Shown: positions 1 through 49,292 of the stretch, piece after piece
Numbering within the stretch: position 1 is the stretch's first letter
Layout of the letters: every line of letters begins with the position of its first letter
Assembly: GCA_947305505.1 (NCBI GenBank)
Contig: CAMZDX010000002.1
Span: 1 to 49,338, forward strand
DNA from: an uncultured bacterium
GTDB taxonomy: Bacteria > UBP6 > UBA1177
Direction of reading: 5' to 3'
Length of the DNA: 49,338 bases
Made by a program: the position numbers and the translations under genes
Notes under the pieces: generated by a model
What the model was told of the DNA's origin: nothing
The model's input: the letters and a program-made list of their open reading frames with translations, nothing else
Database searches by the model: none

Positions 1-221
1 ACTGGGATGTGCGGCAGAAGTGGAAAGATTTCGATAAAATCGAAGAAATGTGCCGTAAAATTGTCGTTATCGGCAGAGGCGAAGGGAAAGAAAACGGCTT
101 TTCACTCCCCGACATTTCGAGCACGATGATAAAAAATATGATCAAAAACAATCAGAATCCCGACGTTTTTCTTCCCGCGGGAATTCTGGATTATATAAGG
201 AAAAACGGGCTTTACGCCTGA
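1..221 (+). CDS. nadD: Nicotinate-nucleotide adenylyltransferase, C-terminal part (5' end outside window)
   Basis: Frame open to the window edge. The C-terminus DISSTMIKNMIKN..DVFLPAGILDYIRKNGLYA follows the conserved NadD C-terminal pattern. Motif reading only. Confidence 0.55.
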   Translation, partial: WDVRQKWKDFDKIEEMCRKIVVIGRGEGKENGFSLPDISSTMIKNMIKNNQNPDVFLPAGILDYIRKNGLYA

Positions 222-988: not shown

Positions 989-1179
989 CCTGAACTCCAA
1001 ATTTGCTTTATCGTTGCGCCGCACCGTTATCACGTTATCCCTGGATCCCAGTATTCCGTCAAGATCTGGCGCGACGGGAAATAACGATGCGACTATACTC
1101 AGAATTTCGGGAAATGCGAGAGGCTATATAATGAGTTAATAAAAACCACCAAACTGGCTGTTTTGAGTCTACCAGTCTC

Positions 1180-1782
1180 TCAGGCAGTCGGAAGTTTCAA
1201 ATCCCTCAAGTTTCCTATTTGACTTGATTCAGCAACTCCTGTTTTGCACCAAAGTGCGAAATGTTCGCAGTTGCGCCAAAACACATTGTAACCAGATCCA
1301 TCATTGAAACCATTTTTCCCAATTTGGCTTTCAGCTCTTCTTAAAGTTTCTTCCGGCGAGTACGGGTGGTAGCTACGACCTAAGATTTTTCTGATGGTAT
1401 CATGTATCTGCTGACCTAGCGCAGGGTTTTTTATGCATTCATTAAACATGTCAAAATCGAGAACGAATACTTCATCTTCACCTTTGAACAGGGAAAATGA
1501 ATCCTTGCGGACAGATACTTTCCCGCTCAAAAAATCGTCGCACCCGTTGGAGAAGTGGATAACTTCAAAGTTCCCTGCATATATGCCGTAATGGTCATAA
1601 TCCGGTAGTACTTTGGGCTTTCTGTGGACACCAATTACGTCTCCCGGTTTAAGCTGCCGCCAGTCTGAAATACGGCATTTAAAATCGGATGGTTTTTTGT
1701 AAGGTAAAAGAAACTTAACAGTTTCTCTAAAAGCTTTGATAGCAATAATAATGCGAATAATGCGTAAAAGAATTAGCGGCAT
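1180..1782 (-). CDS. LRAT / NlpC-P60 superfamily (NC-domain) protein with N-terminal membrane anchor; paralog of 13058..13711
   Basis: His box DHYGIYAG and Cys box NCEHFALWCKTG. Hydrophobic N-terminus. GAGG RBS before the ATG. Confidence 0.75.
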   Translation of the reverse strand: MPLILLRIIRIIIAIKAFRETVKFLLPYKKPSDFKCRISDWRQLKPGDVIGVHRKPKVLPDYDHYGIYAGNFEVIHFSNGCDDFLSGKVSVRKDSFSLFKGEDEVFVLDFDMFNECIKNPALGQQIHDTIRKILGRSYHPYSPEETLRRAESQIGKNGFNDGSGYNVFWRNCEHFALWCKTGVAESSQIGNLRDLKLPTA

Positions 1783-1825
1783 TTTTTCCTCAAAAAATAG
1801 TTGATAAAAAACATCCTCCCCTAAA

Positions 1826-2425
1826 TCACAACATTTCCTGCTTCAGAGTTATCTCCGGTGTTGTCGTTACACCGCTTATGAACCTGACTTGATACGTGGT
1901 ATATTTGTGGACAATCGAGCTTATCATCTCCTTGAATTCGTACGCGGCCTGAGCTGAATATACGGCCATTTCAGCTTTTACGAACTCTTCTTTCCGCTTA
2001 TTGACAACCCGCATCGTGTCATCCGGTTTGATATTATTCCACCAACCGTTTTCCTCGTGCAATATCCTTATGTTTTTAGGATTGACCTCATGACTTATGA
2101 CTCTGGCTCTCGGAATAAAGACATCTATGCGTTCGTTGGTATCGTCAACCTCGACCCTTATTTCATCAGTATCGAACCCGAACTTTATCTCGCCCTGATA
2201 TGCAAGAACCAGCCGCTTTGTAGAAAGCAACGAAGTATCTTCGAACGACACTTCCGGCACTGTGTACTTGCGGCTTACAAGAGCCATTTCTCCGATATTT
2301 TTTATTTGATCTTCCAGAAACGCGCTGTCAACATGACTTTCGCATTCACCATCGCCCAATTTCATAAAAATCACTGCTGTAAAAAGTATAACAGCGATTA
2401 AAATCACAAATGATTTCATCTGCAT
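1826..2425 (-). CDS. DUF4230-like membrane-anchored protein (family B, copy 1)
   Basis: N-terminal TM helix, then IKFGFD...ARVISHEV pattern shared with 2435..3121 and 19176..19838. GGAGG RBS. Confidence 0.6.
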   Translation of the reverse strand: MQMKSFVILIAVILFTAVIFMKLGDGECESHVDSAFLEDQIKNIGEMALVSRKYTVPEVSFEDTSLLSTKRLVLAYQGEIKFGFDTDEIRVEVDDTNERIDVFIPRARVISHEVNPKNIRILHEENGWWNNIKPDDTMRVVNKRKEEFVKAEMAVYSAQAAYEFKEMISSIVHKYTTYQVRFISGVTTTPEITLKQEML

Positions 2426-2434
2426 AGCGGCCTC

Positions 2435-3121
2435 CTAATTAAAAACCTTTGAAATCATGCCCGGATTTTCCTGAACGAATTCTATTCTGTAGTCCCCACC
2501 GTCTCTCCGTTTTGTCCTCAGAAGCGTTGAAAGGTGTCTTGAAACTATCCTTTCGAATTGAGCTGCTGCTTTACTGTCGAAATCCCTGAGGTGGGTTTTA
2601 ACATAAATCTCATTCTGTTCGGCAATCCTTTCCATGAAAATTTTCTGATCGAGCTTGTTCCACAGCCCGTTGTCCCACTCAAGCACCTTGACATCGTTGA
2701 CCTCATGACTGAGGATCTTAGAGTGCGGATATCTGACAATGATATTCTTTCCGTTCTTTTCGATTTTGACATTGTCTAGATCGTAGCCGATCTTCACCGT
2801 AGCTGAATATGAGACGCTGAAACTCTTTTCCGAAGAGACGAGTCTGATGTTGAATACGGGCGTTTTCACCCAATCTTTGCTTTTATATTCGATAGTGTCA
2901 GTATAATCCTGCCTTAAAGTGGAAAGCTCCCTGATTGATCTGACCTCATCAATGAGCAGCGAAGAGGAAACCGTTTCCTCGGTTTCCGATGAGCGTCCTT
3001 TAAAACCATATATTGACCAGGCTAAAAAAAGAACCGACGCACCCAACACGAGCATTTTAAGCATGAAAATTCTCCATTTGATCAAAAGTTTTATAAAAGC
3101 GAGTGCCATCACTTCCGACAT
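2435..3121 (-). CDS. DUF4230-like membrane-anchored protein (family B, copy 2)
   Basis: VKIGYDLDNVKIE...PHSKILSHEV pattern. Its ATG overlaps the upstream TGA by 1 nt (TGATG). Confidence 0.6.
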   Translation of the reverse strand: MSEVMALAFIKLLIKWRIFMLKMLVLGASVLFLAWSIYGFKGRSSETEETVSSSLLIDEVRSIRELSTLRQDYTDTIEYKSKDWVKTPVFNIRLVSSEKSFSVSYSATVKIGYDLDNVKIEKNGKNIIVRYPHSKILSHEVNDVKVLEWDNGLWNKLDQKIFMERIAEQNEIYVKTHLRDFDSKAAAQFERIVSRHLSTLLRTKRRDGGDYRIEFVQENPGMISKVFN

Positions 3122-3510
3122 CAGTTCCGACCTCTTGAAATTATAGAAGTAAGTTTCCTGTAGATAAAATCCAAGACATCTATCTGATTGCGGAAAAGAT
3201 CCAGTACGCCCATAATTCCGAGAATTATTCCACAGAAAGAGTATCCTGCAAACATAAGAATTGCCGAGACCACGCCAAGCAGCATCAGGTGAAGATTCTC
3301 CGCAACAAAAGTCGGTTTTCCATAATCATCATAAAAAGAATCAGGAAGTACTGATCTGAACCTCTCGAGTCTGGCCGACATCAGAATAATAAGCGAAACA
3401 AAAAGTGCCGTAAAAAAACCTGCAGTAAATGTGAGAATCAGAAAGCATACCAGCGCATCGGCAATTCTGTATTTCATAATTTTTGCAGTTCTATCTGTCG
3501 TGCTTATCAT
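3121..3510 (-). CDS. Small multi-pass membrane protein, family C copy 1
   Basis: FTAGFFTALF...RFRSVLPDSFYDD...MGVLDLFRN is shared with 4208..4564 and 16151..16531. GGAGG RBS. Confidence 0.7.
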   Translation of the reverse strand: MISTTDRTAKIMKYRIADALVCFLILTFTAGFFTALFVSLIILMSARLERFRSVLPDSFYDDYGKPTFVAENLHLMLLGVVSAILMFAGYSFCGIILGIMGVLDLFRNQIDVLDFIYRKLTSIISRGRN

Positions 3511-3550
3511 TCCGTACCTCCAAAAAATTAAAAATTAACCAATCACACTA

Positions 3551-3581
3551 TCTTAAAGTACCGATTCCTGCCTATTTCCGA
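3551..3581 (-). promoter_or_regulatory. Cassette bipartite motif, degenerate upstream half (TCGGAAATAG-N13-CTTTAAGA)
   Basis: Minus-strand reading. Same 13-nt spacing as the other copies. Upstream of the ATG at 3510. Confidence 0.4.
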
Positions 3582-3619
3582 AAATTTTAGAAAATTCATG
3601 TATTTTTTTGTCCCCGAAA

Positions 3620-4135
3620 CTAAGACAACCTTGCTTTTACATTGTATTCCAACATCTCAAGAGCGAACCTTAAGATCCACAAAATCACCACATACGCAAT
3701 GAGAGATATAGGCTCGAGCTTAAAAAGCCATGCTGTATAGAGATGGAGAACCACTGACAAAGGTACTGCAAAAATAAAATTCATGCCCGACAAATACACC
3801 GCAACCGCCAAAACAATGAAAATCCACGGCAATATGGTAGTGAAAAGATCCGAAGTAAGTTTGCAGACCGGCCACAGGACAAGCCACCATCCTTCAAGGC
3901 TGTCGCATGTAACATCGTACGAATCGGCATAAAGATGGAGAGCAGCAAACGCAGCATATGCGACTATAAATTTCCATTCAGGCCGCCTTATTCTAAACAA
4001 CTCCAGAATTAAATTTCCGCTGTTTTTCAACATAATATTCACGACATCTTGTCCGTCCATTTCATGTATTAACGTCTTCCCAGACCTCTTGTCTATTTTT
4101 GCTCTAAGAGTTTCCAAATCTCTTCTTCTATTCAT
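3620..4135 (-). CDS. Multi-pass membrane protein, family D copy 1
   Basis: LELFRIRRPEWKFIVAY matches LELLGARIPSWKYIISY in 6253..6609. Start moved to MNRRRDL (GAGAGG RBS). A partial CTTTATAAGTGTGTGAG motif lies upstream. Confidence 0.65.
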   Translation of the reverse strand: MNRRRDLETLRAKIDKRSGKTLIHEMDGQDVVNIMLKNSGNLILELFRIRRPEWKFIVAYAAFAALHLYADSYDVTCDSLEGWWLVLWPVCKLTSDLFTTILPWIFIVLAVAVYLSGMNFIFAVPLSVVLHLYTAWLFKLEPISLIAYVVILWILRFALEMLEYNVKARLS

Positions 4136-4207
4136 GGAAAGACCTCTCGAAAAGTTAAAAAACAACGCTCACACACTTATAAAGATGCAAATTTATCACA
4201 CTTTTAC

Positions 4208-4564
4208 CTACTTTCGGTTCATCAGTTTCTTAACGAAATCTATGCAAGTGTCACGCCCCTCAGCAAGATCGATCACTGTAGCCGCCAAAAGCAAACCTCC
4301 GCATACGAGGTTACCCAAAAGAATGAATACGGCTGACGCGGTTCCAATAATAACTGTCGGAAGCTTTCTCGCTATCCATGTACCGGGTTCGCCGGTTTCA
4401 TCATAGAGGATATCCGGCATAATGAAGCGGAAATATCTGAGATTTCTCGACATGATCAGCAAAATCGTGAATACAAACGCACTGAAAAAACCGCAAGTCG
4501 CTGCAAAAACCACAAAAGCCGTGATCTCGCTGATTTTGATTTTAGGCATTTTACTTACTAACAT
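4208..4564 (-). CDS. Small multi-pass membrane protein, family C copy 2
   Basis: Paralog of 3121..3510. Start moved to MLVSKMPK because GGAGGAG lies 5 nt upstream of that ATG; the ATG at 4597 has no RBS. Confidence 0.65.
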   Translation of the reverse strand: MLVSKMPKIKISEITAFVVFAATCGFFSAFVFTILLIMSRNLRYFRFIMPDILYDETGEPGTWIARKLPTVIIGTASAVFILLGNLVCGGLLLAATVIDLAEGRDTCIDFVKKLMNRK

Positions 4565-4608
4565 TTTCACTCCTCCGACATCTCTTTTGTCATCCATGTT
4601 TTATAAAA

Positions 4609-5214
4609 CTACTGAAATTCAACTTCGCCATCATGTGTTTCATGCCGCATAAGAACACCCCGTACCCGTTCTTCGATTCCTGCAATCTCTTCGGCAGCAC
4701 TGATCCCGTAAATCTCATCGTAGTGCATCGGATCTCTCAGATCGACCATGTCCCATATCTCGTAATAGGAAGCTTCTTCAAGGCGGTAGATCTCCTCTTC
4801 AATCGGTTTGTATGCCTCCATACTGATGACCTTATCCGCAACCGTATTGACTTTTGTTATTGTCTCAACAAGTTTGACCTTTCTCTGATCGCCGAGTCTC
4901 TGCCAGATGCATGATTTCTCACCTATGTACGGATAAAGATCGTACTTTTTAAAATTAAGAAGTTCTGCAGGTTTGATCTCATTCTTTCCGTTCATGACCA
5001 AAATCTTTCCGTCGACCCATTCGAGACGTACTGATTCCCTGTTTTCGTTGAGACCGAATGTTACTTTCTTTACGACAGCGTCTTTTCTTTTCATAGTTTT
5101 TCTCCATTTGTTCTCTGTTGTTAAATCCTGATTTTCCGAAACATCACTGATGTTGTTGCTGAAACTGTTCATTTTTTTCTCCTCTTTTTCTGTTGTCACA
5201 GCTTTTGTTGTCAT
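4609..5214 (-). CDS. Hypothetical soluble protein, family E copy 1 (near-identical core to 14235..14723)
   Basis: GGAGG RBS at 5214. An internal start MKRKDAVV at 5094 (GGAG RBS) corresponds to the start of copy 2, so the N-terminal 40 residues are uncertain. Confidence 0.65.
   Translation of the reverse strand: MTTKAVTTEKEEKKMNSFSNNISDVSENQDLTTENKWRKTMKRKDAVVKKVTFGLNENRESVRLEWVDGKILVMNGKNEIKPAELLNFKKYDLYPYIGEKSCIWQRLGDQRKVKLVETITKVNTVADKVISMEAYKPIEEEIYRLEEASYYEIWDMVDLRDPMHYDEIYGISAAEEIAGIEERVRGVLMRHETHDGEVEFQ
4665..4908. repeat. Near-identical dispersed repeat, copy 1 (partner 14278..14521)
   Basis: Hand alignment finds only 2 mismatches (4702, 4861) over 244 bp. The flanks are clearly more diverged. 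Confidence 0.85.
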
Positions 5215-5252
5215 GTTAAACCTCCAAAATTAAAAATTAACCAATCACGCTA

Positions 5253-5283
5253 TCTTAAAGTGCGCTTCATTCAGTTTTTCCGA
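5253..5283 (-). promoter_or_regulatory. Cassette bipartite motif (TCGGAAAAAC-N13-CTTTAAGA)
   Basis: Minus-strand reading, upstream of the ATG at 5214. Confidence 0.5.
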
Positions 5284-5287
5284 AAAT

Positions 5288-6148
5288 TCATGCACTTTTT
5301 TTGTTTTTTTCATCAAAATCACATGCCTGCAGAACTATTTTTCCGTATTCGGCATCGTCAGCAGGATCAAAAACTAAAAGGAATCCGCCATTGTGACAGA
5401 AAACCGGCTTTTCAGGTTCCGCCTTCGTGAAATCGATTTCTTTTCCCAAACCGGTTCTGTAGAGCGTGCGGCTTTCACTTCCGTCACCGTTCCAGCCGTA
5501 TGCGACTTCTATTCTGTTTTCGTTTATGACATCCCTGCTTGCCGCGTTGTAGGCCTGTATCGAGAAACCGGCTTTGAAAGGTGATGTTTCACACACAAAA
5601 ACTCTTACTCCGCCCCCGAGCATTTCAATATGCGAATTCGCCGCAATCCACTCTTTCACTTTTTTAATCTCATCAATCTCGGAAAGTCTTCTTCTGAAGC
5701 CGTCGGCAACAATATTCGCGATTTTAAGAGGCTCTCTTTCAAAGAGATTTACCATTGTAAACTCAGGAACTATCCACGGCGAAGAATTACCGAATTTCTG
5801 TTCAGCTGTCGGAATTCCGTAATTATCCTGCATTCTTACCCGTTCTATCAACGGAGCGTATTTTTCATCATGCAGCACCCACGGAGCGAAAGTTTTAGCG
5901 ACAAGAGTCAGAGCGCATTCGACTTTATCTGTGTTTTTAAACTGATGATGATCGAAAAAGCGCGATCCGTCGAACTTCATTCCGCAGTCAATAACAAAAT
6001 CGTTATCTACAGCCTCATTGATCCTTTTCGCATCTCTTATGATTTCAGTAAATTCAATATCAGGCTTCGATGCGATAAGAAGTCCGCACGCCCACATTTC
6101 ATCTGCGTGGGCCTTAAGGCCGTGAACAAAGATTCTGCCGCTTTTCAT
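5288..6148 (-). CDS. MYG1/UPF0160-family metal-dependent hydrolase
   Basis: HGLKAHADEMWACGLL and VIDCGMKFDGSRFFDHHQF match the MYG1 motifs H..FH.DEALAC.LL and VDVGG.YD....YDHHQ. Confidence 0.7.
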   Translation of the reverse strand: MKSGRIFVHGLKAHADEMWACGLLIASKPDIEFTEIIRDAKRINEAVDNDFVIDCGMKFDGSRFFDHHQFKNTDKVECALTLVAKTFAPWVLHDEKYAPLIERVRMQDNYGIPTAEQKFGNSSPWIVPEFTMVNLFEREPLKIANIVADGFRRRLSEIDEIKKVKEWIAANSHIEMLGGGVRVFVCETSPFKAGFSIQAYNAASRDVINENRIEVAYGWNGDGSESRTLYRTGLGKEIDFTKAEPEKPVFCHNGGFLLVFDPADDAEYGKIVLQACDFDEKNKKSA

Positions 6149-6157
6149 GACACACTC

Positions 6158-6241
6158 CTAAACAAGAAAGAAATAAATCAAAAAGTTAACGAGCAGAGAA
6201 ACAAGCGTGTCAAAAATCAAACTGATGATCCAAGTAGCCAT
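6158..6241 (-). CDS. 27-aa hydrophobic peptide MATWIISLIFDTLVSLLVNFLIYFFLV
   Basis: Not in the ORF track (too short). GGAGG 5 nt upstream of the ATG. Its TAG is part of the RBS of the MYG1-like gene. Confidence 0.4.
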   Translation of the reverse strand: MATWIISLIFDTLVSLLVNFLIYFFLV

Positions 6242-6252
6242 ATTTTCCTCCA

Positions 6253-6609
6253 TTAATTATTGTCCGATGTTGAAACAGCATGTAAAAATGTCCTGATAAG
6301 ACAAACTGCAAACATTGCAGATGCAAACTTTACCGGGCCGAAAAGCCAGTATATGTACACATAAAGAGCGGTCACCCCGATTATTCTTAACAGACTGTTG
6401 CCTGATGAATATGACCATATAGACAAAACAACAAATGCCACAAGGTATACTGTGGTAGAAAAAACGAAACTATCCCAAAAGAAAAAAAACATTGCGGCAA
6501 ATACAACCAAATATGAGATTATGTATTTCCAAGAAGGAATCCTTGCACCTAACAATTCAAGGAAAAGACTTCCGATGTTGCTCTCTGTGTTCTGGATCTC
6601 TTTTGTCAT
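6253..6609 (-). CDS. Multi-pass membrane protein, family D copy 2
   Basis: Shares the R.P.WK.I..Y segment with 3620..4135. GGAGG RBS. Confidence 0.65.
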   Translation of the reverse strand: MTKEIQNTESNIGSLFLELLGARIPSWKYIISYLVVFAAMFFFFWDSFVFSTTVYLVAFVVLSIWSYSSGNSLLRIIGVTALYVYIYWLFGPVKFASAMFAVCLIRTFLHAVSTSDNN

Positions 6610-6651
6610 AATAAACCTCCAAAAAAAGTTAAAAAACTCAAACTCACACTC

Positions 6652-6682
6652 TCTTAAAGCATCGGGTTTTCCGTTTTTCCGA
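6652..6682 (-). promoter_or_regulatory. Cassette bipartite motif (TCGGAAAAAC-N13-CTTTAAGA)
   Basis: Minus-strand reading, immediately downstream of the ssrA 3' end and upstream of the ATG at 6609. The flank is homologous to the flank of 19882..19912. Confidence 0.5.
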
Positions 6683-6708
6683 AAATTTCCGAAGAAAAGA
6701 GAAAAAAT

Positions 6709-7050
6709 TGGTGGAGGCGGCGGGAATCGAAACCGCGTCCAACCTGAGGAACAACGAAACTTCTACATGCTTAGCTGTCCGTTTTGATAAGTGCTTCGGC
6801 TCCCGGCAGCAGGATCCCCGCACTGTCTCGCATTAGGTTTCGCGGTTTCAGTCATGCGAAAAACTTTCACCGCTATCCCGCTATTAGACGCCCTGCTTCG
6901 CTGTCACGGGAAAACAAGCGAGAGGACGGGCCTTCAGTCGGCCAACGAGCTTTTTACGCTGCGTTTCTGGATTGCCGCTTTTTACGAGGCCAGCGGCACC
7001 TCGGCATGCGATAACGAGGTTCAGCCAGGCTGTCGAAACCTGGCGCCCCC
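6709..7050 (-). ncRNA. ssrA: tmRNA (transfer-messenger RNA)
   Basis: The 5' end is GGGGGCGCCAGGTTTCGACAGCC. The 3' end is GGACGCGGTTTCGATTCCCGCCGCCTCCACCA. Acceptor stem is 7 bp with G3-U70. PK1-like pairing UGCCGCU/AGCGGCA. 342 nt. Confidence 0.93.
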
Positions 7051-7076
7051 AATTCAAAAATCAATGAACGATACTT

Positions 7077-7107
7077 ATATAAAGCGGTGAAAGTCGGATT
7101 TTTCCGG
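7077..7107 (-). promoter_or_regulatory. Cassette-type bipartite motif upstream of ssrA (CCGGAAAAAT-N13-CTTTATAT)
   Basis: Same spacing as the cassette copies. The downstream half is closer to TATAAT. Confidence 0.5.
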
Positions 7108-7128
7108 TTTTTTGGAGAAAAAAATTGT

Positions 7129-8787
7129 TCAGCAGTTTTTAGCGGATCTATCGTTGGCTCTGCGTTTTGCGACCTCTCGTGTCTTCCCTTTTGTGAAATA
7201 ATCAAGATCTTCAAGATAACCCGATACACGGCGGATCCTTCTGATATTCTTCGAACCGCATACCGGGCAGTCGTCGAAAGTCCCTTTGTGCCCGCAGTCG
7301 CGGCATATATCCAGCGGGAAATTCATTCCGAAGTATGAGACTCCCTGAGCTGCGGCATAACCTACGAGATCTTCCAGAGCTTCGACATTTTCCATCGGAG
7401 CATCGTTGAATTCGACATACGCGATGCTGCCGCCGTTGCAAAGAGCGTGAAATTTTCCTTCAATACGCAGCTTGTCATAGAGAGAAATCCCCGAATCTAC
7501 TTCGACATGGAAAGAATTCGTGTAGAACTCTTTTTCGAGAACAGGGTGCTCGAACATTTTTTTGTCGGCCTCGGCGAAACGCCCGGAAATCAACTCTCCC
7601 GGAGTTGCCAGAAGCGAAAAGTTTAGTCCTGTCTCCCTGCGGAAGGAATCTGCACAGTTTCTGAGTTTTTTGACAATATCAAAACCGAGCTGTTCCGCAT
7701 TTTTCGAAAGATAGAGTTTTTCACCGGTCAGGATCTCGACAGTTTCGGAAATCCCGATAAAACCTAATGAAAGAGTTCCCTGTTTGACAAGTTCATCCAT
7801 ATTTGCGACTTCGTTCCAAAGGTGGTTTTCGAACACAAAACCGAGTTTTTGCGTCTTTTTAAGAGTCTCCATTCTGGAAAGCAGGATATCTTTGCATACA
7901 TGAGCCTTTTCTTCGAGCTTTTCCATAAAATCAACGACCGATCCCGACTGAAGGGCAATACGCGGAAGGTTTATCGAAACATAAGCGATGTTTCCGCGTC
8001 CGATGGTCTGCTCCGGTCCGTTGGAATTCTGGTATACTCTTGTACGGCATCCCATGATCCCCAGTTTTTCAGGGTCGCAGCCGCGGTTCGGTTCGCTGTC
8101 GAGAAGCAGATAGGTAGGTATCATCCTGTTTGCAGTGCAATGAAGAGCCTGCAGGAAAAGATCGTGATTCGGATCAGATGCATCGGCGTTCACACCTTTT
8201 TTCACTTTGAAAATGATGTTCGGGCGTTCATAGTGTATCGACTGCTCAAGATAAGCTTTGAGTATCGATTTCGTGATAAATCTCCCCCACTCCGATGTCG
8301 CAAGTCCGAGATTGAGCGATATATAGTAAGGTTCACGGCAGTATCTCGTGCGTGTCGTGTTGACCCAGTTCAAAAAAAGAGCCGCAAGATCGGTCATCGC
8401 ATCTCTGTTCGCTTCACTGAACGGCACATTGAGTTTTTCAAGAACATCCGCGATATCGATATCGAAATTGGCGAAACCGATCCCGCCCGTCTGGCAGACT
8501 GCAAGAGAAGAAATCAGCGATTCTATCTTTCCGAAGATCTCGGCAATCTTACTGAAATCATTAGTTGAAACGAACTTTTTGGCATCAAGGATATCCTGAA
8601 GCGCCGGTGTACAGCAGTTATAGACAAAGCGGTATCCTTCAAGATCATGAAGATGGATCTCGGCATTTCTGTGCATTTCGGCATATTCCGGCTTTACCAG
8701 ATTATTGAGAATAAAATTTTTCTCCTGCTTTACAGCCTCTTCATAAAGACCGCTTACGAAATTGTCTCTTGCAGCTGCATTTTCCAT
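7129..8787 (-). CDS. nrdD: Anaerobic ribonucleoside-triphosphate reductase (class III)
   Basis: C-terminal Zn ribbon CRDCGH..CPVCGS, followed by the glycyl-radical motif RRVSGYL. AGGAGG RBS. Confidence 0.9.
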   Translation of the reverse strand: MENAAARDNFVSGLYEEAVKQEKNFILNNLVKPEYAEMHRNAEIHLHDLEGYRFVYNCCTPALQDILDAKKFVSTNDFSKIAEIFGKIESLISSLAVCQTGGIGFANFDIDIADVLEKLNVPFSEANRDAMTDLAALFLNWVNTTRTRYCREPYYISLNLGLATSEWGRFITKSILKAYLEQSIHYERPNIIFKVKKGVNADASDPNHDLFLQALHCTANRMIPTYLLLDSEPNRGCDPEKLGIMGCRTRVYQNSNGPEQTIGRGNIAYVSINLPRIALQSGSVVDFMEKLEEKAHVCKDILLSRMETLKKTQKLGFVFENHLWNEVANMDELVKQGTLSLGFIGISETVEILTGEKLYLSKNAEQLGFDIVKKLRNCADSFRRETGLNFSLLATPGELISGRFAEADKKMFEHPVLEKEFYTNSFHVEVDSGISLYDKLRIEGKFHALCNGGSIAYVEFNDAPMENVEALEDLVGYAAAQGVSYFGMNFPLDICRDCGHKGTFDDCPVCGSKNIRRIRRVSGYLEDLDYFTKGKTREVAKRRANDRSAKNC

Positions 8788-8797
8788 TCGTTCCTCC

Positions 8798-9283
8798 TTA
8801 ATTGTGCAGTTTTATAAAACTCTGGTTTGTAGAACCGACATATGGCCTGACGCTCGTTTTTCTGTCGATCTGGAAATCACCGACCTTGATGTAGTCAATA
8901 TATTGAAGAAGTTCAGGATCGACATCTTCCATGCTGTTGCCGGTGTAAACAGCGATATCATAATCCTTTTCGTGAAGGATCTTGACCAGACTAATAAGCC
9001 CGTCGTACTGAAGCAGCGGTTCTCCGCCAGAGATCGTGACTCTGCGGAGCGGAGTATTTTCGTCTATGACCGAAACAAGCTCACCGACACTCATCTGATG
9101 TCCTACTTTCGTATTCCATGTCCCTGAATTGTGGCAGCCGGGGCAGTGACGGTCGCAACCTTGAAAAAATATAACGTTTCTTACTCCCGGCCCGTCGCAG
9201 GTAGAACCGCGGAGATCCAGATTGTTGATAAGAAGCATCTGCTCCCCGCTCTCACAAACACTGTTCACGTGCATAGACTCCAT
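8798..9283 (-). CDS. nrdG: Anaerobic ribonucleotide reductase activating protein (radical SAM)
   Basis: CDRHCPGCHN cluster motif. Start moved to MESMHVN because the GGAGG lies inside the longer ORF start. Confidence 0.85.
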   Translation of the reverse strand: MESMHVNSVCESGEQMLLINNLDLRGSTCDGPGVRNVIFFQGCDRHCPGCHNSGTWNTKVGHQMSVGELVSVIDENTPLRRVTISGGEPLLQYDGLISLVKILHEKDYDIAVYTGNSMEDVDPELLQYIDYIKVGDFQIDRKTSVRPYVGSTNQSFIKLHN

Positions 9284-12848: not shown

Positions 12849-12960
12849 TGGTGGAGACGGCGGGAATCGAACCCGCGTCCTGAACGCCGGGCATAAGCCC
12901 GATCCATCGCCGGCCGGAACCGGTTAAGGTTTAACGCCCAGTCTAAACCATGTCATCCCC
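12849..12960 (-). ncRNA. tmRNA-derived tRNA-like-domain-only RNA (mini-tmRNA 1), 112 nt
   Basis: The 5' end GGGGAUGACAUGGUUUAGACUGGGCG resembles a tmRNA 5' end. The 3' end is CGUUCAGGACGCGGGUUCGAUUCCCGCCGUCUCCACCA. Acceptor stem is 7 bp with G3-U70. P2a-like pairing CUGGGCG/CGUUCAG. No mRNA-like domain. Confidence 0.7.
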
Positions 12961-12976: not shown

Positions 12977-13006
12977 ATATAAAGGGATAAATTCAGATTT
13001 TTCCGG
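12977..13006 (-). promoter_or_regulatory. Cassette-type motif upstream of mini-tmRNA 1 (CCGGAAAAA-N13-CTTTATAT)
   Basis: The CTTTATAT box ends 16 nt before the predicted RNA 5' end. Confidence 0.45.
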
Positions 13007-13057: not shown

Positions 13058-13711
13058 TCAGGAAACTATTTCCAGCATTTTGTTCGCTATTTGAATTTGA
13101 CTTGATTCAGCAACTCCCGTTTTACACCAAAGTGCGAAATGTTCGCAGTTGCGCCACGGTCGCCAGCCCTCCTTTCCCCCTTTGAAACCCTTTTTCCCGA
13201 TTTCTCTTTCGGCGTTTCTTAAAGTTTCTTCAGGCGAGTAAAAGTGGTATTTTCTGATTCTATCATGTACTCGTTGACCTATTTTCAGAGGCGGAAGATT
13301 CTCAATGTATTCATTAAATCCGTCAAAATCTACAGCGAATACTTTATCTTCACCTTTGAACCGATAAAACGAATCCTTGCGGACGGATACTTCCCCGCTG
13401 AAAGAATCGTCGCGCCCGTTGGAGAAGTGGATAACTTCCAAGTTTCCTGCATATATCCCGTAATGGTCATAAGCGTTTATCCCTTTGACGGGCTTTCTGT
13501 GGACGCCTATTACGTCGCCAGGTTTAAGCTGCCGCCAGTCTGAAACACGGCATTTAAAACCGGATGGAGTTTCGTAAGAGACAACATACTTAATAACTTT
13601 GGGAACAACAATCACAGCTATGGCTACACCTACACTGGCAGGCGAAATACATAGTGCACCTGCTGGCGAAACAACTGCATTTCCCAACGTTTTTGTCATC
13701 ACTTTTAACAT
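13058..13711 (-). CDS. LRAT / NlpC-P60 superfamily (NC-domain) protein with N-terminal membrane anchor; paralog of 1180..1782
   Basis: YDHYGIYAG and NCEHFALWCKTG boxes. GGAGGAGG RBS. Confidence 0.75.
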   Translation of the reverse strand: MLKVMTKTLGNAVVSPAGALCISPASVGVAIAVIVVPKVIKYVVSYETPSGFKCRVSDWRQLKPGDVIGVHRKPVKGINAYDHYGIYAGNLEVIHFSNGRDDSFSGEVSVRKDSFYRFKGEDKVFAVDFDGFNEYIENLPPLKIGQRVHDRIRKYHFYSPEETLRNAEREIGKKGFKGGKEGWRPWRNCEHFALWCKTGVAESSQIQIANKMLEIVS

Positions 13712-14225: not shown

Positions 14226-14234
14226 GTTTACCTC

Positions 14235-14723
14235 CTAAAATTCAACTTTAACATCATTTGTTTCATGCTGCATAAGAACCGCCTGTGCCCGTTCTTCGAT
14301 TCCTGCAATCTCTTCGGCAGCACTAATCCCGTAAATCTCATCGTAGTGCATCGGATCTCTCAGATCGACCATGTCCCATATCTCGTAATAGGAAGCTTCT
14401 TCAAGGCGGTAGATCTCCTCTTCAATCGGTTTGTATGCCTCCATACTGATGACCTTATCCGCAACCGTATTGACTTTTGTTATCGTCTCAACAAGTTTGA
14501 CCTTTCTCTGATCGCCGAGTCTCTGCCAGATACATGATTTTTCACCGAGGTACGGATAGAGGTCGTACTTCTTGAAATTGAGAAGTTCCTCCGGTTTGAT
14601 CTCATTCTTTCCGTTCATGACCAAAATTTTTCCGTCGACCCATTCGAGACGTACTGATTCTCTGTTTGTGTTAAGGCCGAATGTTACTTTTTTTACGATT
14701 GCGTCTTTCTTTCTGTTAAGCAT
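14235..14723 (-). CDS. Hypothetical soluble protein, family E copy 2
   Basis: Near-identical to the C-terminal 160 residues of 4609..5214. GGAGAG RBS. Confidence 0.7.
   Translation of the reverse strand: MLNRKKDAIVKKVTFGLNTNRESVRLEWVDGKILVMNGKNEIKPEELLNFKKYDLYPYLGEKSCIWQRLGDQRKVKLVETITKVNTVADKVISMEAYKPIEEEIYRLEEASYYEIWDMVDLRDPMHYDEIYGISAAEEIAGIEERAQAVLMQHETNDVKVEF
14278..14521. repeat. Near-identical dispersed repeat, copy 2 (partner 4665..4908)
   Basis: Same alignment, constant offset of 9613 bp. Confidence 0.85.
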
Positions 14724-19175: not shown

Positions 19176-19838
19176 TCAGGCTGCCGTTTTATCCCTGTTT
19201 TTTTCTATCGGCAGCAGAGACACTATCTGATCAAATTCAGAATCTTTATAGTTTTGATAAACAGTTTTTCCACCGACTTCGACACGGAATTTCATCTTCG
19301 CATCCAGGAAAGGTCTGATCTGTTCTATTCTTTTACAAAGTTCTTCTATTACTTTATCTTTCTTTTGTTCCATATTCTTCACATGCTCCTGTTTTTTACT
19401 TTCAATAGTCCTCTCGATTTCCAGATCTTTAAGTTTTCTCCATCCAGTCTTAAACACTCTCTTTTTAGTAATATCGTGGCTGAGTATCTCAGGTTCTGGC
19501 AAATTGATGACATATACATCTCCATCTTTGCGTGTATTCGCAGCATCTATTTTGAATCCGTATTTGATACAGCCGTTACACAGGATCGTTCCTTTAGCTT
19601 TAATCCATCTCCCGATTTCCAAGTCAAAATCATCGCTATAGTTGTTTTCATAAAACGCAGCTTCTAAGATCGGTTTTAAGGCCTCGACTATATAAGAGTT
19701 TGAGACAGTTATTCCGGAATCCTTGAGATATCTGTTCAAAAGAGACTTCAGAAAAACAAAGACTGCAGCAAAAGATGTAAGAACAATGATCAATGTAAAG
19801 AAACCTTCTATAAGTTTTGAAATGATAACTTCTGACAT
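19176..19838 (-). CDS. DUF4230-like membrane-anchored protein (family B, copy 3)
   Basis: N-terminal TM helix. CIKYGFKIDAAN...PEPEILSHDI pattern. AGGAGG RBS. Confidence 0.6.
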   Translation of the reverse strand: MSEVIISKLIEGFFTLIIVLTSFAAVFVFLKSLLNRYLKDSGITVSNSYIVEALKPILEAAFYENNYSDDFDLEIGRWIKAKGTILCNGCIKYGFKIDAANTRKDGDVYVINLPEPEILSHDITKKRVFKTGWRKLKDLEIERTIESKKQEHVKNMEQKKDKVIEELCKRIEQIRPFLDAKMKFRVEVGGKTVYQNYKDSEFDQIVSLLPIEKNRDKTAA

Positions 19839-19881
19839 GATTTACCTCCTAAAAAACATTAATAAAACTCAAACCACACTC

Positions 19882-19912
19882 TCTTAAAGCGTCGGATTTT
19901 CCGTTTTTCCGA
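19882..19912 (-). promoter_or_regulatory. Cassette bipartite motif (TCGGAAAAAC-N13-CTTTAAGA)
   Basis: Minus-strand reading, immediately downstream of mini-tmRNA 2. Flank homologous to the ssrA downstream flank. Confidence 0.5.
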
Positions 19913-19938
19913 AAAATTCCGAAAAAAAGAGAAAAAAC

Positions 19939-20051
19939 TGGTGGAGACGGCGGGAATCGAACCCGCGTCCTGAACGCCGGGGCCTAAGCCCGATCCTTCG
20001 CCGGCCGGAACCGGTTCAGGTTTAATGCCCAGTCAAAACCATGTCATCCCC
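19939..20051 (-). ncRNA. tmRNA-derived tRNA-like-domain-only RNA (mini-tmRNA 2), 113 nt
   Basis: Differs from copy 1 by 5 substitutions and one 1-nt indel. None of these falls in the acceptor stem or T-arm. The hairpin CGGGC-UUAU-GCCCG becomes GGGC-UUAG-GCCC. Confidence 0.65.
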
Positions 20052-20094
20052 ATAATTAATCGTCAGCTGCCCTTTTTATCCTCCTCGCAACACG

Positions 20095-20541
20095 TCATTT
20101 TTTAGCATCTTTCAGCATACTTATGATCACGTCTAAAGGTGTGCCGGGAATAAAGATTGCACAGGCAGGAAGCGCTGTCCGGCAGCACTTCCCTATCATT
20201 TTTTCCATATTATATTTTTCAGAGTCATACCCCGGCTTCCACCATTCGCAGCTTACAGCATAGCAGCCGTACTTGGTATAGTTTCCCACGATCTCCAACT
20301 TGGGATTGCTTTTTCTTCGCTGTGTCGCATAGTTAAGAAAATCGTTTATATCACAGTACCACGGAAACTTCTTGGTGCACATCAGAGCCTCACACTCTTC
20401 CGAGACGACTACCTTTCTCACAATATCCGGGTCATTCAGCATCTTCTTTCTCAATCTCGGTTTGATTGCAAAATAGATGATTGCCGCAAGAATCCCCGTA
20501 GACGCCGCACTCATCAAAGCATTCAACAAAATGTCGTTCAT
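20095..20541 (-). CDS. Hypothetical 148-aa Cys-rich protein with N-terminal TM helix
   Basis: AGGAGA RBS with a cassette motif upstream. The stop lies 43 nt before mini-tmRNA 2. Confidence 0.6.
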   Translation of the reverse strand: MNDILLNALMSAASTGILAAIIYFAIKPRLRKKMLNDPDIVRKVVVSEECEALMCTKKFPWYCDINDFLNYATQRRKSNPKLEIVGNYTKYGCYAVSCEWWKPGYDSEKYNMEKMIGKCCRTALPACAIFIPGTPLDVIISMLKDAKK

Positions 20542-20583: not shown

Positions 20584-20615
20584 TCTTAAAGCGGTGAAGT
20601 TTCGTTTTTTTCCGG
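20584..20615 (-). promoter_or_regulatory. Cassette bipartite motif (CCGGAAAAAAA-N13-CTTTAAGA)
   Basis: Minus-strand reading, upstream of the ATG at 20541. Confidence 0.5.
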
Positions 20616-25798: not shown

Positions 25799-28537
25799 AT
25801 GACGGAAAAAAACGAAAACGAACTTCTGCTTATAAAAGCGGCAGTTTATGCAGGTTTTACAATTTTAGTTTTGCAAGATGAATCTAAAAGATTAAAGAAA
25901 TTCGGAAGTTTCAATGGATATTTGAACCTATGCGGACAATTCGGAATTTATTTCAACCATATTAATAAATTGCAGAATGTGCAGCAAAATATTGATGATT
26001 TTAAGACACTTGTTTCCATATTAGATAGTTGCATAGCAAAAAAAGAAATAAATTCTGAGAGATATCAAGACTTTTTTGCGAATGCAAATAACTTTTTTCA
26101 GGAATTAAAGCCTTACGCCGAAGCTTATTATGAAGTTAAAACAAAAAATTTAAAATTGAACAAATTAGGTTTTTACTGCACAACCGGTAATCAAGCAGTT
26201 CCCAAACCTGCAGTTGTTAAAACACCTCAAGAAAATGCAATCACAAGCACCCAAGAACATACCAAAGAAAAAACAAATCCGATCGTTCCTGAGAAACATT
26301 CGGAAAACAGAGACTTATCGTCAAAAGTCAAGACGGAAGTTCCCAAGAACTCAAGTGGAAATTCGGTAAAAAAAATGAAACCGATTGACTTGGATAAGAA
26401 ACTTAAACCTGTTAAAAAGATAGCAAATATAAAATTCAACGATTTTACTGATTTTTCCGCTGATTCCGCAGAATTGAACATATACATTGATGAGGCATGG
26501 CCTTGGCCTGGTAAAGATTATAACACTTTTGTTCCTCAGAATCCTGATGATAAAAAGACAGGCGTTATTGCCGGAATAGTTTGGCTCGGAAGCGAAACAG
26601 ATCCCGAAATCCTGCCTAAAATAGGGACTCATTTGCGGGAAGAAATAAAACCATATAGTGATACAGGCAAACCTATTCCGGAACAAATTGAAAAAATTTT
26701 AATGCCACCTATCCAAAACCTGCTGAACTGTAAAAAAGCTATGCCTTTTATTTTTCCGTTAAATATTGAATCAGAAATAGATTGGCAAAATGACTACTTC
26801 CCTATTTTTGAAGCTGCGATTAAAATCCTTCTCGGCTGGGTTCTTCCTCAAAACGGTAAAAAATGCAATGTCTGCATATATCCTGAACATATAGGCAAAT
26901 TCGTTGATGGAAGAAGTAAGTCGGAATATTTCAGAGGAGTTCTTAGTCAGGCCATGAAAAATACCGGGCGTTTTTCCCGATTTAATATTAAAAAAGTCGA
27001 ATGGCAGGACAAAGAATTCGGATATATTCCTTACGGAGATCTGCTCGGCTATATGACATTGCCGATATACAATAGTCTTGTTTTTAAAAAAATGGCTCGA
27101 TGTGAAGAGCTTGCAGGTTATCTGCCGATTTCCATCGGACTGTTCGAACTGCTTTCAAGACTTGATATCATAGAGGAAACCAAAAATGTTGATGATATCT
27201 ACAATCTTATCGACAGCATTTACGGCACAAAAATTTACAATTTTATTATGTCGGATCTGAAAAAACGCTTGGAAAACAATGTCGAATTGAAAACGAAGAT
27301 CCTAGAGTCAATAGAAGCTAAATACTTGGCTAAAAACCGAGACTTGAGGAAGCTCCGCTGGTATTTCAAGGAAATCATGCCCTTTATAGAGTCTCTTGAA
27401 GAAACCGCAGACACAGTAACAAAACTTATGTTTACATCGGTAAGGCTTCAGGATGCGAACCACGAGGGAAATCCCGCTAAAATAGAAAAATATCTCGCGG
27501 ATTATGATGAAAAATGGGCAAAAGCGATTCAGTTGAGAGAATTTGAGATTGCAGCCGACTGTGAACTTCATCTTGCAGTCCACTACAACGATATGTTCCA
27601 GTTTGACAAAGCTTTTGAAACATTGAAAAGAAACGAAAAATATTTCGACTATTTCAAACTTCCGACTGTCGCCAAATTTTACAGCAGTTTGGGGCAGAAC
27701 AAGTCTATAAATAAGAATTTTGGCGAGGCGAAACGCTGGTTCGACAAGGCTCTGGAAGAGTTCAACAAATCGGAAGACCGCAACAAAGCCCTGGAAATCG
27801 AGCAGACTTCGGTTTACCGCCTTTTCAACGCATTGGAAGGCAACGATCCTGAATATCCAAAAATGTTCACCGGATTTTTCGGTACTTCACCTGAAATTGC
27901 CGCCAAATTCGCTAATGAAAATTCTGTAGCCGACCAGTACAAGCACCATCTTCTTGTCCGTTCTCTCTTCTCACGCAATGATCTCGGCGAATTCAAAACA
28001 GCCTATCTTGCAGAAAAGAAAAACTGGAATTTCCTCCCGCAGCATCCGTGGCAACTCATAGAATTTTACAGAGCGATGCTGGAAAACGACTCTGAAAAAT
28101 CTTACGTTCACATGAAAAATGCTTTGGCAATCTGTGAAAATGAAGAGCACGGCGGAGTAATTTATCTGATCGGAGCAGTGATCGCGGCAGCAGGAGCAAC
28201 AAAATTCACCGGAGACAAAAAAGAAGATCTTCAGCAAAAAGCTCTCGAATTTGTTGAAAAAGCAGAAAATATGCGCGTAGCCGGGAAAAAAACAGCAATG
28301 CTTAGCGAAAAAATAAAGGAAAATATTTATCTTATCGGAACAGTAATCGCGACAGCAGGAGCAACAAAATTCACCGGAGCAAAAAAAGAATTCCTTCAGA
28401 AAAAAGCAACCGAATTTGCGGAAAAAGCAGAAAGTATGCGTGTTGCGGGAAGTGCTGCGGCAATGCTTAGCGAAAAAATAAAGGAAAATTGCGGAATTGA
28501 AAATATTCTGGAGATTTTACCGTTTAATTACAGATAG
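25799..28537 (+). CDS. Large protein with a DUF3800-like central region and C-terminal TPR-like repeats (gene C)
   Basis: GAGGTG RBS 12 nt after the gene B stop. LNIYIDEAW...GVIAGIVW...IPYGDLLGYM weakly resembles the DUF3800 pattern. The C-terminal half is helical-repeat and ends in a 55-aa tandem duplication. Confidence 0.7.
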   Translation: MTEKNENELLLIKAAVYAGFTILVLQDESKRLKKFGSFNGYLNLCGQFGIYFNHINKLQNVQQNIDDFKTLVSILDSCIAKKEINSERYQDFFANANNFFQELKPYAEAYYEVKTKNLKLNKLGFYCTTGNQAVPKPAVVKTPQENAITSTQEHTKEKTNPIVPEKHSENRDLSSKVKTEVPKNSSGNSVKKMKPIDLDKKLKPVKKIANIKFNDFTDFSADSAELNIYIDEAWPWPGKDYNTFVPQNPDDKKTGVIAGIVWLGSETDPEILPKIGTHLREEIKPYSDTGKPIPEQIEKILMPPIQNLLNCKKAMPFIFPLNIESEIDWQNDYFPIFEAAIKILLGWVLPQNGKKCNVCIYPEHIGKFVDGRSKSEYFRGVLSQAMKNTGRFSRFNIKKVEWQDKEFGYIPYGDLLGYMTLPIYNSLVFKKMARCEELAGYLPISIGLFELLSRLDIIEETKNVDDIYNLIDSIYGTKIYNFIMSDLKKRLENNVELKTKILESIEAKYLAKNRDLRKLRWYFKEIMPFIESLEETADTVTKLMFTSVRLQDANHEGNPAKIEKYLADYDEKWAKAIQLREFEIAADCELHLAVHYNDMFQFDKAFETLKRNEKYFDYFKLPTVAKFYSSLGQNKSINKNFGEAKRWFDKALEEFNKSEDRNKALEIEQTSVYRLFNALEGNDPEYPKMFTGFFGTSPEIAAKFANENSVADQYKHHLLVRSLFSRNDLGEFKTAYLAEKKNWNFLPQHPWQLIEFYRAMLENDSEKSYVHMKNALAICENEEHGGVIYLIGAVIAAAGATKFTGDKKEDLQQKALEFVEKAENMRVAGKKTAMLSEKIKENIYLIGTVIATAGATKFTGAKKEFLQKKATEFAEKAESMRVAGSAAAMLSEKIKENCGIENILEILPFNYR
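28160..28489 (+). repeat. 165-bp in-frame tandem duplication (2 units) inside gene C
   Basis: The units 28160..28324 and 28325..28489 encode IYLIGAVIAAAGATKFTGDKKE...MLSEKIKEN and IYLIGTVIATAGATKFTGAKKE...MLSEKIKEN. Confidence 0.9.
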
Positions 28538-30175: not shown

Positions 30176-30232
30176 TCTCTGCAAAACACCAACGAAATCA
30201 AAGCCTTAACAGTAGAGACGTAACCTGATACG

Positions 30233-30476
30233 TCTCAAATTGGAGCCCGGGTTCTGCCTACATTAAACTAAGTGTTTAATAATATTTTATTTGGAGGTGA
30301 ACATTTCAACCAGAGCCCGGGTTCTGCCTACATTAAACTGTTGAATCTATAAAGGATCTTGGTGACAAAGGTTTCAACCAGAGCCCGGGTTCTGCCTACA
30401 TTAAACAAAGAACTGGTCACGTTTCGATAAAGGGATCACTGTTTCAACCAGAGCCCGGGTTCTGCCTACCTGTAAC
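30233..30476 (-). CRISPR. CRISPR array: four 36-bp repeats, three spacers of 34/32/34 bp
   Basis: Plus-strand repeat is GTTTCAACCAGAGCCCGGGTTCTGCCTACATTAAAC, at 30233 (degenerate), 30303, 30371 and 30441 (degenerate end). Strand is tentative: the minus-strand reading ends in GTTGAAAC. Confidence 0.85.
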
Positions 30477-48494: not shown

Positions 48495-48554
48495 TAGGGA
48501 AACTAGGGAATTTAGGGAGTTTAGGGATTTTTTCCCTAGTTTCCCTAGATTCCC
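48495..48554. repeat. 9-bp repeat block A: four TAGGGANNT units followed by two inverted units (TTTCCCTAG)
   Basis: The units are tagggaaac, tagggaatt, tagggagtt, tagggattt, tttccctag and tttccctag. The block can fold as a hairpin and overlaps the stop of 48545..49114. Confidence 0.8.
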
Positions 48555-49232: not shown

Positions 49233-49292
49233 ATTCCCTAAATTCCCTAGATTCCCTAGACACCTTAGACTCCCTAGATTCCTTAGACTCCC
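49233..49292. repeat. 9-bp repeat block B: about seven tandem NNTCCCTAG-type units
   Basis: Sequence is attccctaa attccctag attccctag acaccttag actccctag attccttag actccc. Inverted relative to the first four units of block A. Confidence 0.8.

Follow-up and report, generated by a model that had tools for sequence, protein, structure and literature searches.

Tag-less transfer-messenger RNAs (tmRNAs), which consist of the tRNA-like domain (TLD) without a coding sequence (CDS) for the tag, have been regarded as oddities found in a single phage and a few organelles. We describe here such an RNA gene, mini-tmRNA 2 (mini2), as a conserved, selected and duplicated chromosomal gene of an uncultured bacterium from the ruminant gut. 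It lies in the 49,338-nt stretch of DNA that was analysed (the window; contig CAMZDX010000002.1 of assembly GCA_947305505.1), which also carries a full-length tmRNA gene, ssrA, and a second TLD-only copy, mini-tmRNA 1 (mini1).

The closest described system is the TLD-only tmRNA of mycobacteriophage DS6A (tmRNA Website tmID 11587), which we located at JN698994 28478-28560 as an 83-nt gene scoring 43 bits, below the Rfam gathering score. As in mini2, the tmRNA ends are joined directly, with no tag frame or pseudoknots, and both RNAs have a 7-bp acceptor stem with a G3·U pair, a D-loop analogue, helix P2a and a T-arm. However, the DS6A gene has one small internal hairpin, lacks an encoded CCA and is phage-borne, whereas mini2 has two hairpins and an encoded CCA and is chromosomal; unlike the DS6A gene, it also occurs as one of two copies beside a full ssrA and is fused behind a protein gene. 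The DS6A type is minimal in length (about 65-87 nt, one short internal hairpin) and the sole copy in a phage or organelle, and mini2 falls outside it on both counts. According to PMC4131195 and PMC11915505, which cite Mao et al. 2009, a DS6A-like TLD molecule strongly inhibits tmRNA in Escherichia coli, chargeable or not, perhaps through titration of SmpB.

CDS-less tmRNAs have also been described in jakobid and oomycete mitochondria and, at ~65 bp, in two Mallomonadaceae plastids; the mitochondrial forms co-occur with SmpB and are thought to help somehow (PMC11915505). These organellar genes resemble mini2 in that the tag frame is lost and the RNA conserved. Each is the sole tmRNA of a reduced genome, whereas mini2 is an extra paralogue beside a canonical ssrA.

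Repeats at attachment (att) sites are limited to the resident gene's 3′ part and are accompanied by an integrase. The ssrA 3′-end duplications at island att sites (Williams; Islander) are like the present locus in their direct-orientation tmRNA-like copies, their variable region and their role as recombination hot spots. The 5′ half of mini2, by contrast, is its own, and its acceptor stem is not that of the resident ssrA (5′ strand GGGGAUG, against GGGGGCG); no integrase or recombinase domain was found among the Pfam matches of the window's annotated genes. Because its 5′ half differs, mini2 is neither a copy of the resident ssrA nor an att-type 3′ fragment of it, and the latter identification was rejected. 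A permuted, two-piece tmRNA was rejected as well, as the corresponding family, RF04321, has no match in the window. The TLD-only kind is known; novel in the present case are the greater length and the two hairpins of a gene that is chromosomal, duplicated and selected across strains, and that stands behind a lineage-specific open reading frame (ORF) and beside an ssrA with a minimal tag.

Anatomy of a TLD-only tmRNA paralogue

Mini2 is a 113-nt gene on the minus strand that matches the tmRNA family RF00023 with 72.7 bits (gathering score 47; E = 2e-26). The match covers model positions 1 to ~45 and ~315 to 374, and the 269 model positions between them are reduced to 7 nt. The 5′ and 3′ parts of the TLD are thereby contiguous, as in other TLD-only, CDS-less tmRNAs. 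No resume codon, tag reading frame or stop codon was found, nor were pseudoknots PK1-PK4; only two simple hairpins lie between the strands of P2a. By score and by parts the TLD itself is complete, with an acceptor stem carrying G3·U, the discriminator A and CCA, a T-arm, the conserved GG of the D-loop analogue, and P2a (Table 1). P2a consists of eight pairs (columns 20-27 with 75-82) and is linked to the T-arm by GAC. The target fold is the minimum-free-energy structure for mini1 and lies within 0.3 kcal/mol of the minimum for mini2.

Table 1. Features of the mini2 locus and related genes. Coordinates are those of the window except where a related metagenome locus (L001, L012) is named; positions under Feature are RNA positions in mini2.
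Feature	Coordinates	Strand	Basis or remark
Mini-tmRNA 2, TLD-only tmRNA paralogue	19939..20051	-	RF00023, both model ends matched, middle absent
Acceptor stem 5′ strand GGGGAUG, positions 1-7, includes G3 of G3·U	20045..20051	-	7/7 pairs, invariant in 4 haplotypes
D-loop analogue ACAUGGUUUUGA, positions 8-19, 12 nt unpaired, conserved GG	20033..20044	-	Aligned to tmRNA model positions 8-19
P2a helix 5′ strand, positions 20-27	20025..20032	-	Pair counts
Internal hairpin A, CCGG-UUCCGG-CCGG, positions 38-51	20001..20014	-	Stem invariant; sole change G47A (relatives), in loop
Internal hairpin B, CGGGC-UUAG-G(C)CCCG, positions 60-74	19978..19992	-	Relatives: C-G to U·G, G-C to G·U
P2a helix 3′ strand, positions 75-82	19970..19977	-	Type C relatives: C76U, G·U pair retained
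T-arm GCGGG-UUCGAUU-CCCGC, positions 86-102	19950..19966	-	5/5 pairs, invariant
Acceptor stem 3′ strand CGUCUCC, discriminator A, encoded CCA	19939..19949	-	G3·U alanine identity pair
Spacer of 43 nt, ORF148 stop to RNA 5′ end; U at position -1	20052..20094	-	91-100% identical between strains
ORF148, 148 aa, N-terminal hydrophobic helix, Cys-rich	20095..20541	-	Always upstream of mini2 orthologue
Bipartite motif CCGGAAAAAAAC-N-CTTTAAGA, likely promoter of ORF148 + mini2 transcript	20584..20615	-	Motif scan, nearest copy
Downstream flank: U-rich tract right after CCA (19921-19938), bipartite motif (19882-19912), leader, ribosome-binding site of next gene	19839..19938	-	Repeat families D2-D5
First cassette gene after mini2, DUF4230	19176..19838	-	Pfam PF14014, E = 1.5e-6
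Mini-tmRNA 1, paralogous copy, 112 nt	12849..12960	-	RF00023, 70.1 bits; own motif at 12977-13006 with CTTTATAT box
Resident full-length ssrA	6709..7050	-	RF00023, 151.3 bits; own motif at 7077-7107
Decayed ssrA remnant, 5′ 58 nt joined to 3′ 100 nt	L001 4894-5037; L012 10762-10904	-; +	Acceptor and T stems broken

Mini1 differs from mini2 by substitutions at RNA positions 17, 26, 35, 55 and 68 and, in mini2, by an extra C at position 70. Direct comparison thus agrees with the first-pass annotation of this DNA, made from the sequence alone, which had counted five substitutions and one indel and had placed all of them outside the acceptor stem and T-arm. It was also right that the stem of the internal hairpin is kept, as CGGGC-UUAU-GCCCG in mini1 and as GGGC-UUAG-GCCC plus a bulged C in mini2. 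Its description of the differences as structure-preserving holds in part: three changes are one-sided wobbles, but no double compensatory change occurs in the four haplotypes compared, and the change at position 26 gives an A·C mismatch in P2a, so that not every difference is structure-neutral.

Conservation among related strains

Related genes were sought with a degenerate pattern in which the tmRNA ends lie 40-70 nt apart, validated on the window. Among 185,579 species-representative genomes neither the exact nor the degenerate architecture pattern had a match, and at that stringency the mini2 form is absent or very rare among them. The same 40-70-nt pattern retrieved six metagenome loci, of which two (L001 and L006) carry orthologues of mini2; further loci (L007, L008, L009, L012, L015 and L016) were recovered with the upstream ORF, ORF148, as a handle. 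At all eight loci, which come from at least six samples, an intact mini RNA gene scoring 72.7-73 bits stands 43 nt after ORF148.

The partner of this linkage is itself a real gene, with a ratio of non-synonymous to synonymous divergence (dN/dS) of 0.11-0.21 at a dS of 0.20-0.38. It forms a single 90% cluster among 5.8 billion proteins and has no match in Pfam, NCBIfam, PADLOC or PHROG; NCBIfam and PADLOC likewise recognised none of the cassette genes. Its AlphaFold2 model was unusable (pLDDT, the predicted local distance difference test score, 42).

Divergence of the RNA gene was compared with that of its neighbour. Between strains the mini RNA differs at 0-6% of sites, against 16-31% of the fourfold-degenerate sites of ORF148 (Fisher p = 0.007 to 3e-7), so that it diverges 4-fold to >10-fold more slowly. 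Its identity between strains (94.6-100%) is at least equal to that of the true ssrA: the window and the strain represented by L012 and L025 are 94.6% identical in the mini gene and 90.9% in ssrA. Mini2 is conserved under purifying selection across strains. The relatives hold three further RNA haplotypes, and all differences among these, mini1 and mini2 are changes in loops or linkers, one-sided wobbles (C-G to U·G once, G-C to G·U twice) or the mismatch and bulge specific to mini2. In the D-loop analogue only position 17 varies, being U or A.

An internal control is provided by L001 and L012, where an ssrA-type internal-deletion remnant of 143-144 nt, scoring 26-34 bits, lies ~160 nt after the intact mini gene. 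Upstream of this remnant are the promoter module described below and a 17-aa ORF (MNGNSTINVFLNDNSGN), an arrangement that also precedes the genuine ssrA of L025. The same joint (6795 to 6993) recurs in a further sample. The remnant has decayed and the mini gene beside it has not, so that decay does befall relics here but has not befallen the mini gene. A 46.8-bit match to RF04321 in L001 and L012 proved to be an artefact of adjacency, the 3′ end of the mini gene lying next to the 5′ end of the remnant. The low scores of two other loci, L010 and L011, were rejected as signs of decay, since their divergence is confined to contig ends beyond the T-loop; these are probably assembly chimeras.

These comparisons bear on whether mini2 is a neutral relic, that is, the product of a recent internal deletion in a foreign or duplicated ssrA, left by island traffic at the tmRNA locus and undecayed so far. 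The remnants prove that the locus generates such derivatives, the region is heavily rearranged between strains, and mini2 has its P2a mismatch. Nevertheless, a divergence so far below that of adjacent neutral sites, the intactness of the gene in every strain sampled next to a broken true remnant, a 5′ half unlike that of the resident ssrA and the lack of an integrase among the window's annotated genes make a relic very unlikely. The relatives carry an intact gene and not a decaying one, in keeping with the first-pass annotation, which had taken mini2 for a genuine second TLD-only gene.

TLD-only genes unrelated to mini2 were found as well (L002-L005, L012b and L019-L024, in addition to DS6A), and only the universal TLD core is common to them and mini2. 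Without exception they have 7/7 acceptor pairs with G3·U, 5/5 T-stem pairs and a P2a of 6-9 bp that is unrelated in sequence. Since P2a pairing is kept by unrelated sequences, compensatory variation exists at the level of the class. Viral contigs (IMG/VR) yielded six of these genes (L019-L024, four distinct genes of 80-86 nt) at an internal gap of 10-40 nt and none at gaps of 40-70 or 70-100 nt, which suggests that short TLD-only forms are common in phages. The phage-like contigs L002, L004 and L005 encode a small terminase, an anti-restriction protein and an exonuclease. The genes of these uncultured phages (L019-L024, L002 and L004/L005) share with mini2 the architecture, the alanine identity and a paired P2a, but they are phage-encoded, mostly 80-87 nt long and in some cases located in or beside tRNA genes. 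Within P2a, mini2 has 45 nt with two hairpins, against 12-17 nt in DS6A and L019-L024. A BLAST search of phages and plasmids matched only the universal T-arm and 3′ end. Directly before the TLD-only gene of L004, a 10-bp hairpin with a 7-nt loop and a terminal ACCA (GGAGCGCCGG-GUACGAU-CCGGCGCUCC-ACCA; 5660-5699, plus strand) resembles, by its sequence, a tRNA minihelix.

Possible co-transcription, promoter modules and cassette exchange

The first-pass annotation had placed the start of mini2 43 nt past the stop of ORF148 and had noted that it lacks a bipartite motif of its own. Both observations stand, the nearest motif being located upstream of ORF148 and none between the ORF148 stop and the RNA. 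A scan of the spacer found neither a promoter motif nor a terminator, and the ORF148-spacer-RNA unit is kept in 8/8 loci; the true ssrA of a relative likewise follows a small ORF, at 7 nt. Co-transcription of ORF148 and mini2, which had also been proposed, is plausible from this arrangement. A search for an antisense partner RNA of mini2 returned only chance matches of at most 11 nt.

The bipartite motif (consensus GGAAAAA-N13-16-CTTTAWRW) occurs in at least 10 strict copies between 5253 and 20615, all on the minus strand, where 0.05 would be expected by chance. It also precedes ssrA, mini1 and nrdG, and the housekeeping half of the window is free of it. In the ssrA and mini1 copies the second box is CTTTATAT in place of CTTTAAGA. 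One such motif belongs to the flank downstream of mini2. The 100 nt before the next ATG after mini2 and the 100 nt after ssrA (6610-6709) are 86% identical, a likeness that ranks first of 276 pairs of gene-upstream sequences (median 51%, 90th percentile 60%). The homology between the two flanks, claimed in the first reading, is therefore confirmed, but because the flank is one copy of a promoter and leader module with at least 10 copies it is not an element specific to tmRNA genes.

Different genes follow the two flanks, as had been stated: the DUF4230 gene after mini2 and, after ssrA, a 118-aa protein with no family above the cut-off. Comparison between strains, which the first-pass annotation had called for, also revealed that cassette content downstream of a conserved mini gene varies. 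The gene after the mini RNA encodes DUF4230 in the window; in L009 it is a 193-aa gene followed by LRAT, and in L012 a tiny ORF followed by the ssrA remnant. The flank of the ORF148-linked mini gene is of the ssrA type in the window and L009 and of the mini1 type in L012 and L007. Flank types have thus been swapped between strains, which implies that crossovers took place in the RNA gene or beside it. In addition, in a contig of another sample the modules at 20548 and 19841 are joined directly, with ORF148 and mini2 missing. This module-to-module junction indicates that the unit of ORF148 and mini2 is polymorphic for presence and absence, as a cassette would be.

The proposal that the shared flank is a recombination or expression module is largely borne out by the flank swaps and by this contig, with the reservation that this holds for all cassettes rather than for tmRNA-like genes alone. 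The further idea that ssrA and the two mini genes act as heads of three cassette runs did not hold. Modules precede nearly every cassette gene, and the relatives' ssrA is located elsewhere, so the three-run layout is specific to the strain. In the relative, no ssrA was found after NrdD; the true ssrA lies, behind a module and the 17-aa ORF, between a CRISPR array with intact type III cas genes and a Csx1/STAND island. In L025, positions 1-9203 hold an intact type III CRISPR-Cas operon (Cas10, RAMPs and Cas6) and a 15-repeat array directly upstream of ssrA. The window keeps four CRISPR repeats (30221-30476) and Csx1, and its ssrA is relocated behind NrdD.

Several repeats were noted in this region. 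Cassette genes are duplicated between the ssrA and mini2 runs (4609-4908 and 14232-14531; 1217-1718 and 13095-13593) at 83-97% identity, which is consistent with recent copying of cassettes. The 912-aa gene of a low-GC STAND operon contains a tandem 165-nt duplication, 84% identical, at 28160-28489 on the plus strand, and 9-nt tandem repeats (TTCCCTAGA-like) occur at 49234-49293, with a related copy at 48532-48555.

This mobility raises the question of whether the element acts in cis, or at the DNA level, and in no other way. The fold would then process, stabilise and terminate the ORF148 mRNA at its 3′ end, and its sequence, together with the module, would be a portable stretch of homology, with no role of the released RNA in trans. 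The strict association with ORF148, at the distance of a conserved 43-nt spacer, fits such a role, as do the U-tract directly after CCA, the swapping of flank types at the RNA gene, the module-to-module junction that lacks ORF148 and mini2, and the flanks of mini2 and ssrA, the most alike of the 276 pairs. However, no ORF148 paralogue stands upstream of mini1, which carries a promoter motif of its own, so an RNA of this kind is kept without that mRNA context. Moreover, a terminator or processing signal needs no G3·U, encoded CCA, D-loop analogue or perfect T-loop, all of which are invariant, and unrelated phages keep a TLD-only RNA as a free-standing gene. We consider a role restricted to cis rather unlikely.

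The window is bacterial chromosome, as judged from NusA, initiation factor 2 (IF-2), a class A penicillin-binding protein (PBP1) and NrdD/NrdG, and no phage structural genes were found in it. DNA sequencing runs containing its sequence come from sheep, bovine and other gut metagenomes. Mini2 adjoins a STAND-HEPN operon, a Csx1/CARF gene and the CRISPR remnant. A third mini type in a relative, L012b, abuts a CRISPR array: this TLD-only gene of 98 nt (L012 19309-19406, plus strand; 45.8 bits) lies just before the array, has GGGGAUG/CAUCUCC with G3·U and the T-loop UGCGAUU, and has no counterpart in the window. Such neighbours might point to a decoy or regulator of RNases or defence nucleases (RNase R, the neighbouring HEPN protein, Csx1 or accessory nucleases of type III CRISPR) that does not act on the ribosome, and tmRNA fragments of ~90 nt do bind RNase R and function within the protein-RNA anti-CRISPR complex of AcrIIIA1 (PMC11662646). 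The RNAs of AcrIIIA1 are, however, cleavage fragments of host RNAs and not the products of dedicated genes. In L009 the ORF148-mini unit lies beside housekeeping genes, with no defence island; the linkage to defence is accordingly not conserved, which weakens this interpretation, and we regard it as highly improbable.

A possible role in ribosome rescue

The explanation we favour, with moderate confidence, is that mini2 is a functional, tag-less TLD-only tmRNA paralogue, processed by RNase P, chargeable with alanine and able to bind SmpB, that modulates or competes in trans-translation. A competitor or modulator is favoured because a TLD-like molecule inhibits tmRNA in E. coli (Mao et al. 2009, as cited in PMC4131195 and PMC11915505). 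The course of events outlined here, from transcription and processing through charging and SmpB binding to an effect on rescue, is predicted from sequence features. Transcription would begin from the bipartite motif at ~20584-20615, with mini2 as the 3′ part of the ORF148 transcript, and would stop at the U-tract directly after the stacked acceptor stem and T-arm. A cut by RNase P 5′ of G20051 would release the 113-nt RNA with its encoded CCA and would leave the ORF148 mRNA with its stop codon. Alanyl-tRNA synthetase would charge the RNA with alanine by way of the G3·U pair, and SmpB would bind it as it binds the TLD of tmRNA. Without a resume codon, tag frame or stop codon, mini2 would be unable to complete trans-translation. 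Instead, SmpB, EF-Tu and stalled ribosomes would be contested between it and the resident tmRNA, and ribosome rescue would thereby be tuned or damped. As DNA, the RNA gene would also serve, with the promoter module behind it, as homology for recombination that exchanges the cassettes downstream.

Several observations weigh against this explanation. The A·C mismatch at pair 26/76 of P2a is unique to mini2 (A26, window 20026), the other haplotypes having G-C or G·U there and a fully paired helix, and the extra, bulged C of hairpin B (window 19982) is missing from the contigs of other strains. As neither feature has a counterpart in those strains, mini2 could be slightly impaired. Within the mini family no double compensatory change was found, with a shuffle control of four sequences only, and covariation within the family is thus not demonstrated. 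Folding energies are no better than those of shuffled sequences (z = -0.33 for mini2; range -0.3 to -1.2), so thermodynamics contributes nothing to the argument. Recent recombination among strains, or gene conversion with mini1, might account for part of the low divergence in place of selection on the RNA. When RNA sequencing runs were queried with ssrA or mini2 as bait, no matching run was found. Finally, a constitutive inhibitor of a cell's own rescue system looks costly.

The resident ssrA offers a different view of how a charged mini RNA might act. Its tag consists of two codons, GCA GCG UAA (Ala-Ala), which the Rfam alignment places at the resume position (RNA nt 89-97), and the same tag is kept in the 91%-identical ssrA of a relative (L025 9482-9821). 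Tags of this class are rare, with 25 sequences in the 2025 tmRNA database paper (PMC11915505). ARAGORN called none of the three tmRNA-like genes of the window, nor those in the relatives' loci, and Rfam alone found the window's three; for the resident ssrA the two-codon tag is probably the reason. For annotation, this means that ARAGORN overlooks such genes and Rfam detects them. The T-stem of the resident ssrA (window 6732) reads GCGGU/CCCGC, with a U·C mismatch at the loop-closing pair where the relative has the canonical GCGGG, and is either real or an assembly error.

With such a tag beside it, mini2 might serve productive, tag-free rescue by alanine tailing. A charged mini RNA would, with SmpB, donate one alanine at a stalled ribosome; in the absence of a template the ribosome would again be non-stop, and another mini RNA or the full tmRNA would act next. 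A longer C-terminal alanine tail would raise rescue or degron strength, which would not be inhibited. Besides the rare Ala-Ala tag and its retention in the relative, this idea can draw on the fact that mini2 retains every element needed for charging, and on the CDS-less mitochondrial tmRNAs mentioned above, which co-occur with SmpB and are thought helpful (PMC11915505). Translocation and recycling of a TLD without an mRNA-like domain, on the other hand, have no support, the connection with the short tag is correlative and comes from one lineage, and the sole experimental result for such a molecule is inhibition (Mao et al. 2009, cited in PMC4131195). We judge alanine tailing by mini2 to be a fairly unlikely account. 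That chromosomal TLD-only paralogues are, together with SmpB, template-free alanine donors working one alanine at a time, as a tmRNA-based counterpart of RqcH-type tailing, is a speculation to which we attach little credence. If it were true, a degron would be extended before the full tmRNA or a release factor ended the cycle, and mini copy number and cassette-like mobility would set the strength of protein quality control.

Competition with, or modulation of, the resident tmRNA remains the role that we favour for mini2. If the gene is expressed, its product would be a built-in bacterial RNA that competes with or modifies the main ribosome-rescue pathway, and it would bear on the regulation of trans-translation, on the minimal requirements of the interaction between the TLD and SmpB, and on natural RNA counterparts of trans-translation inhibitors.

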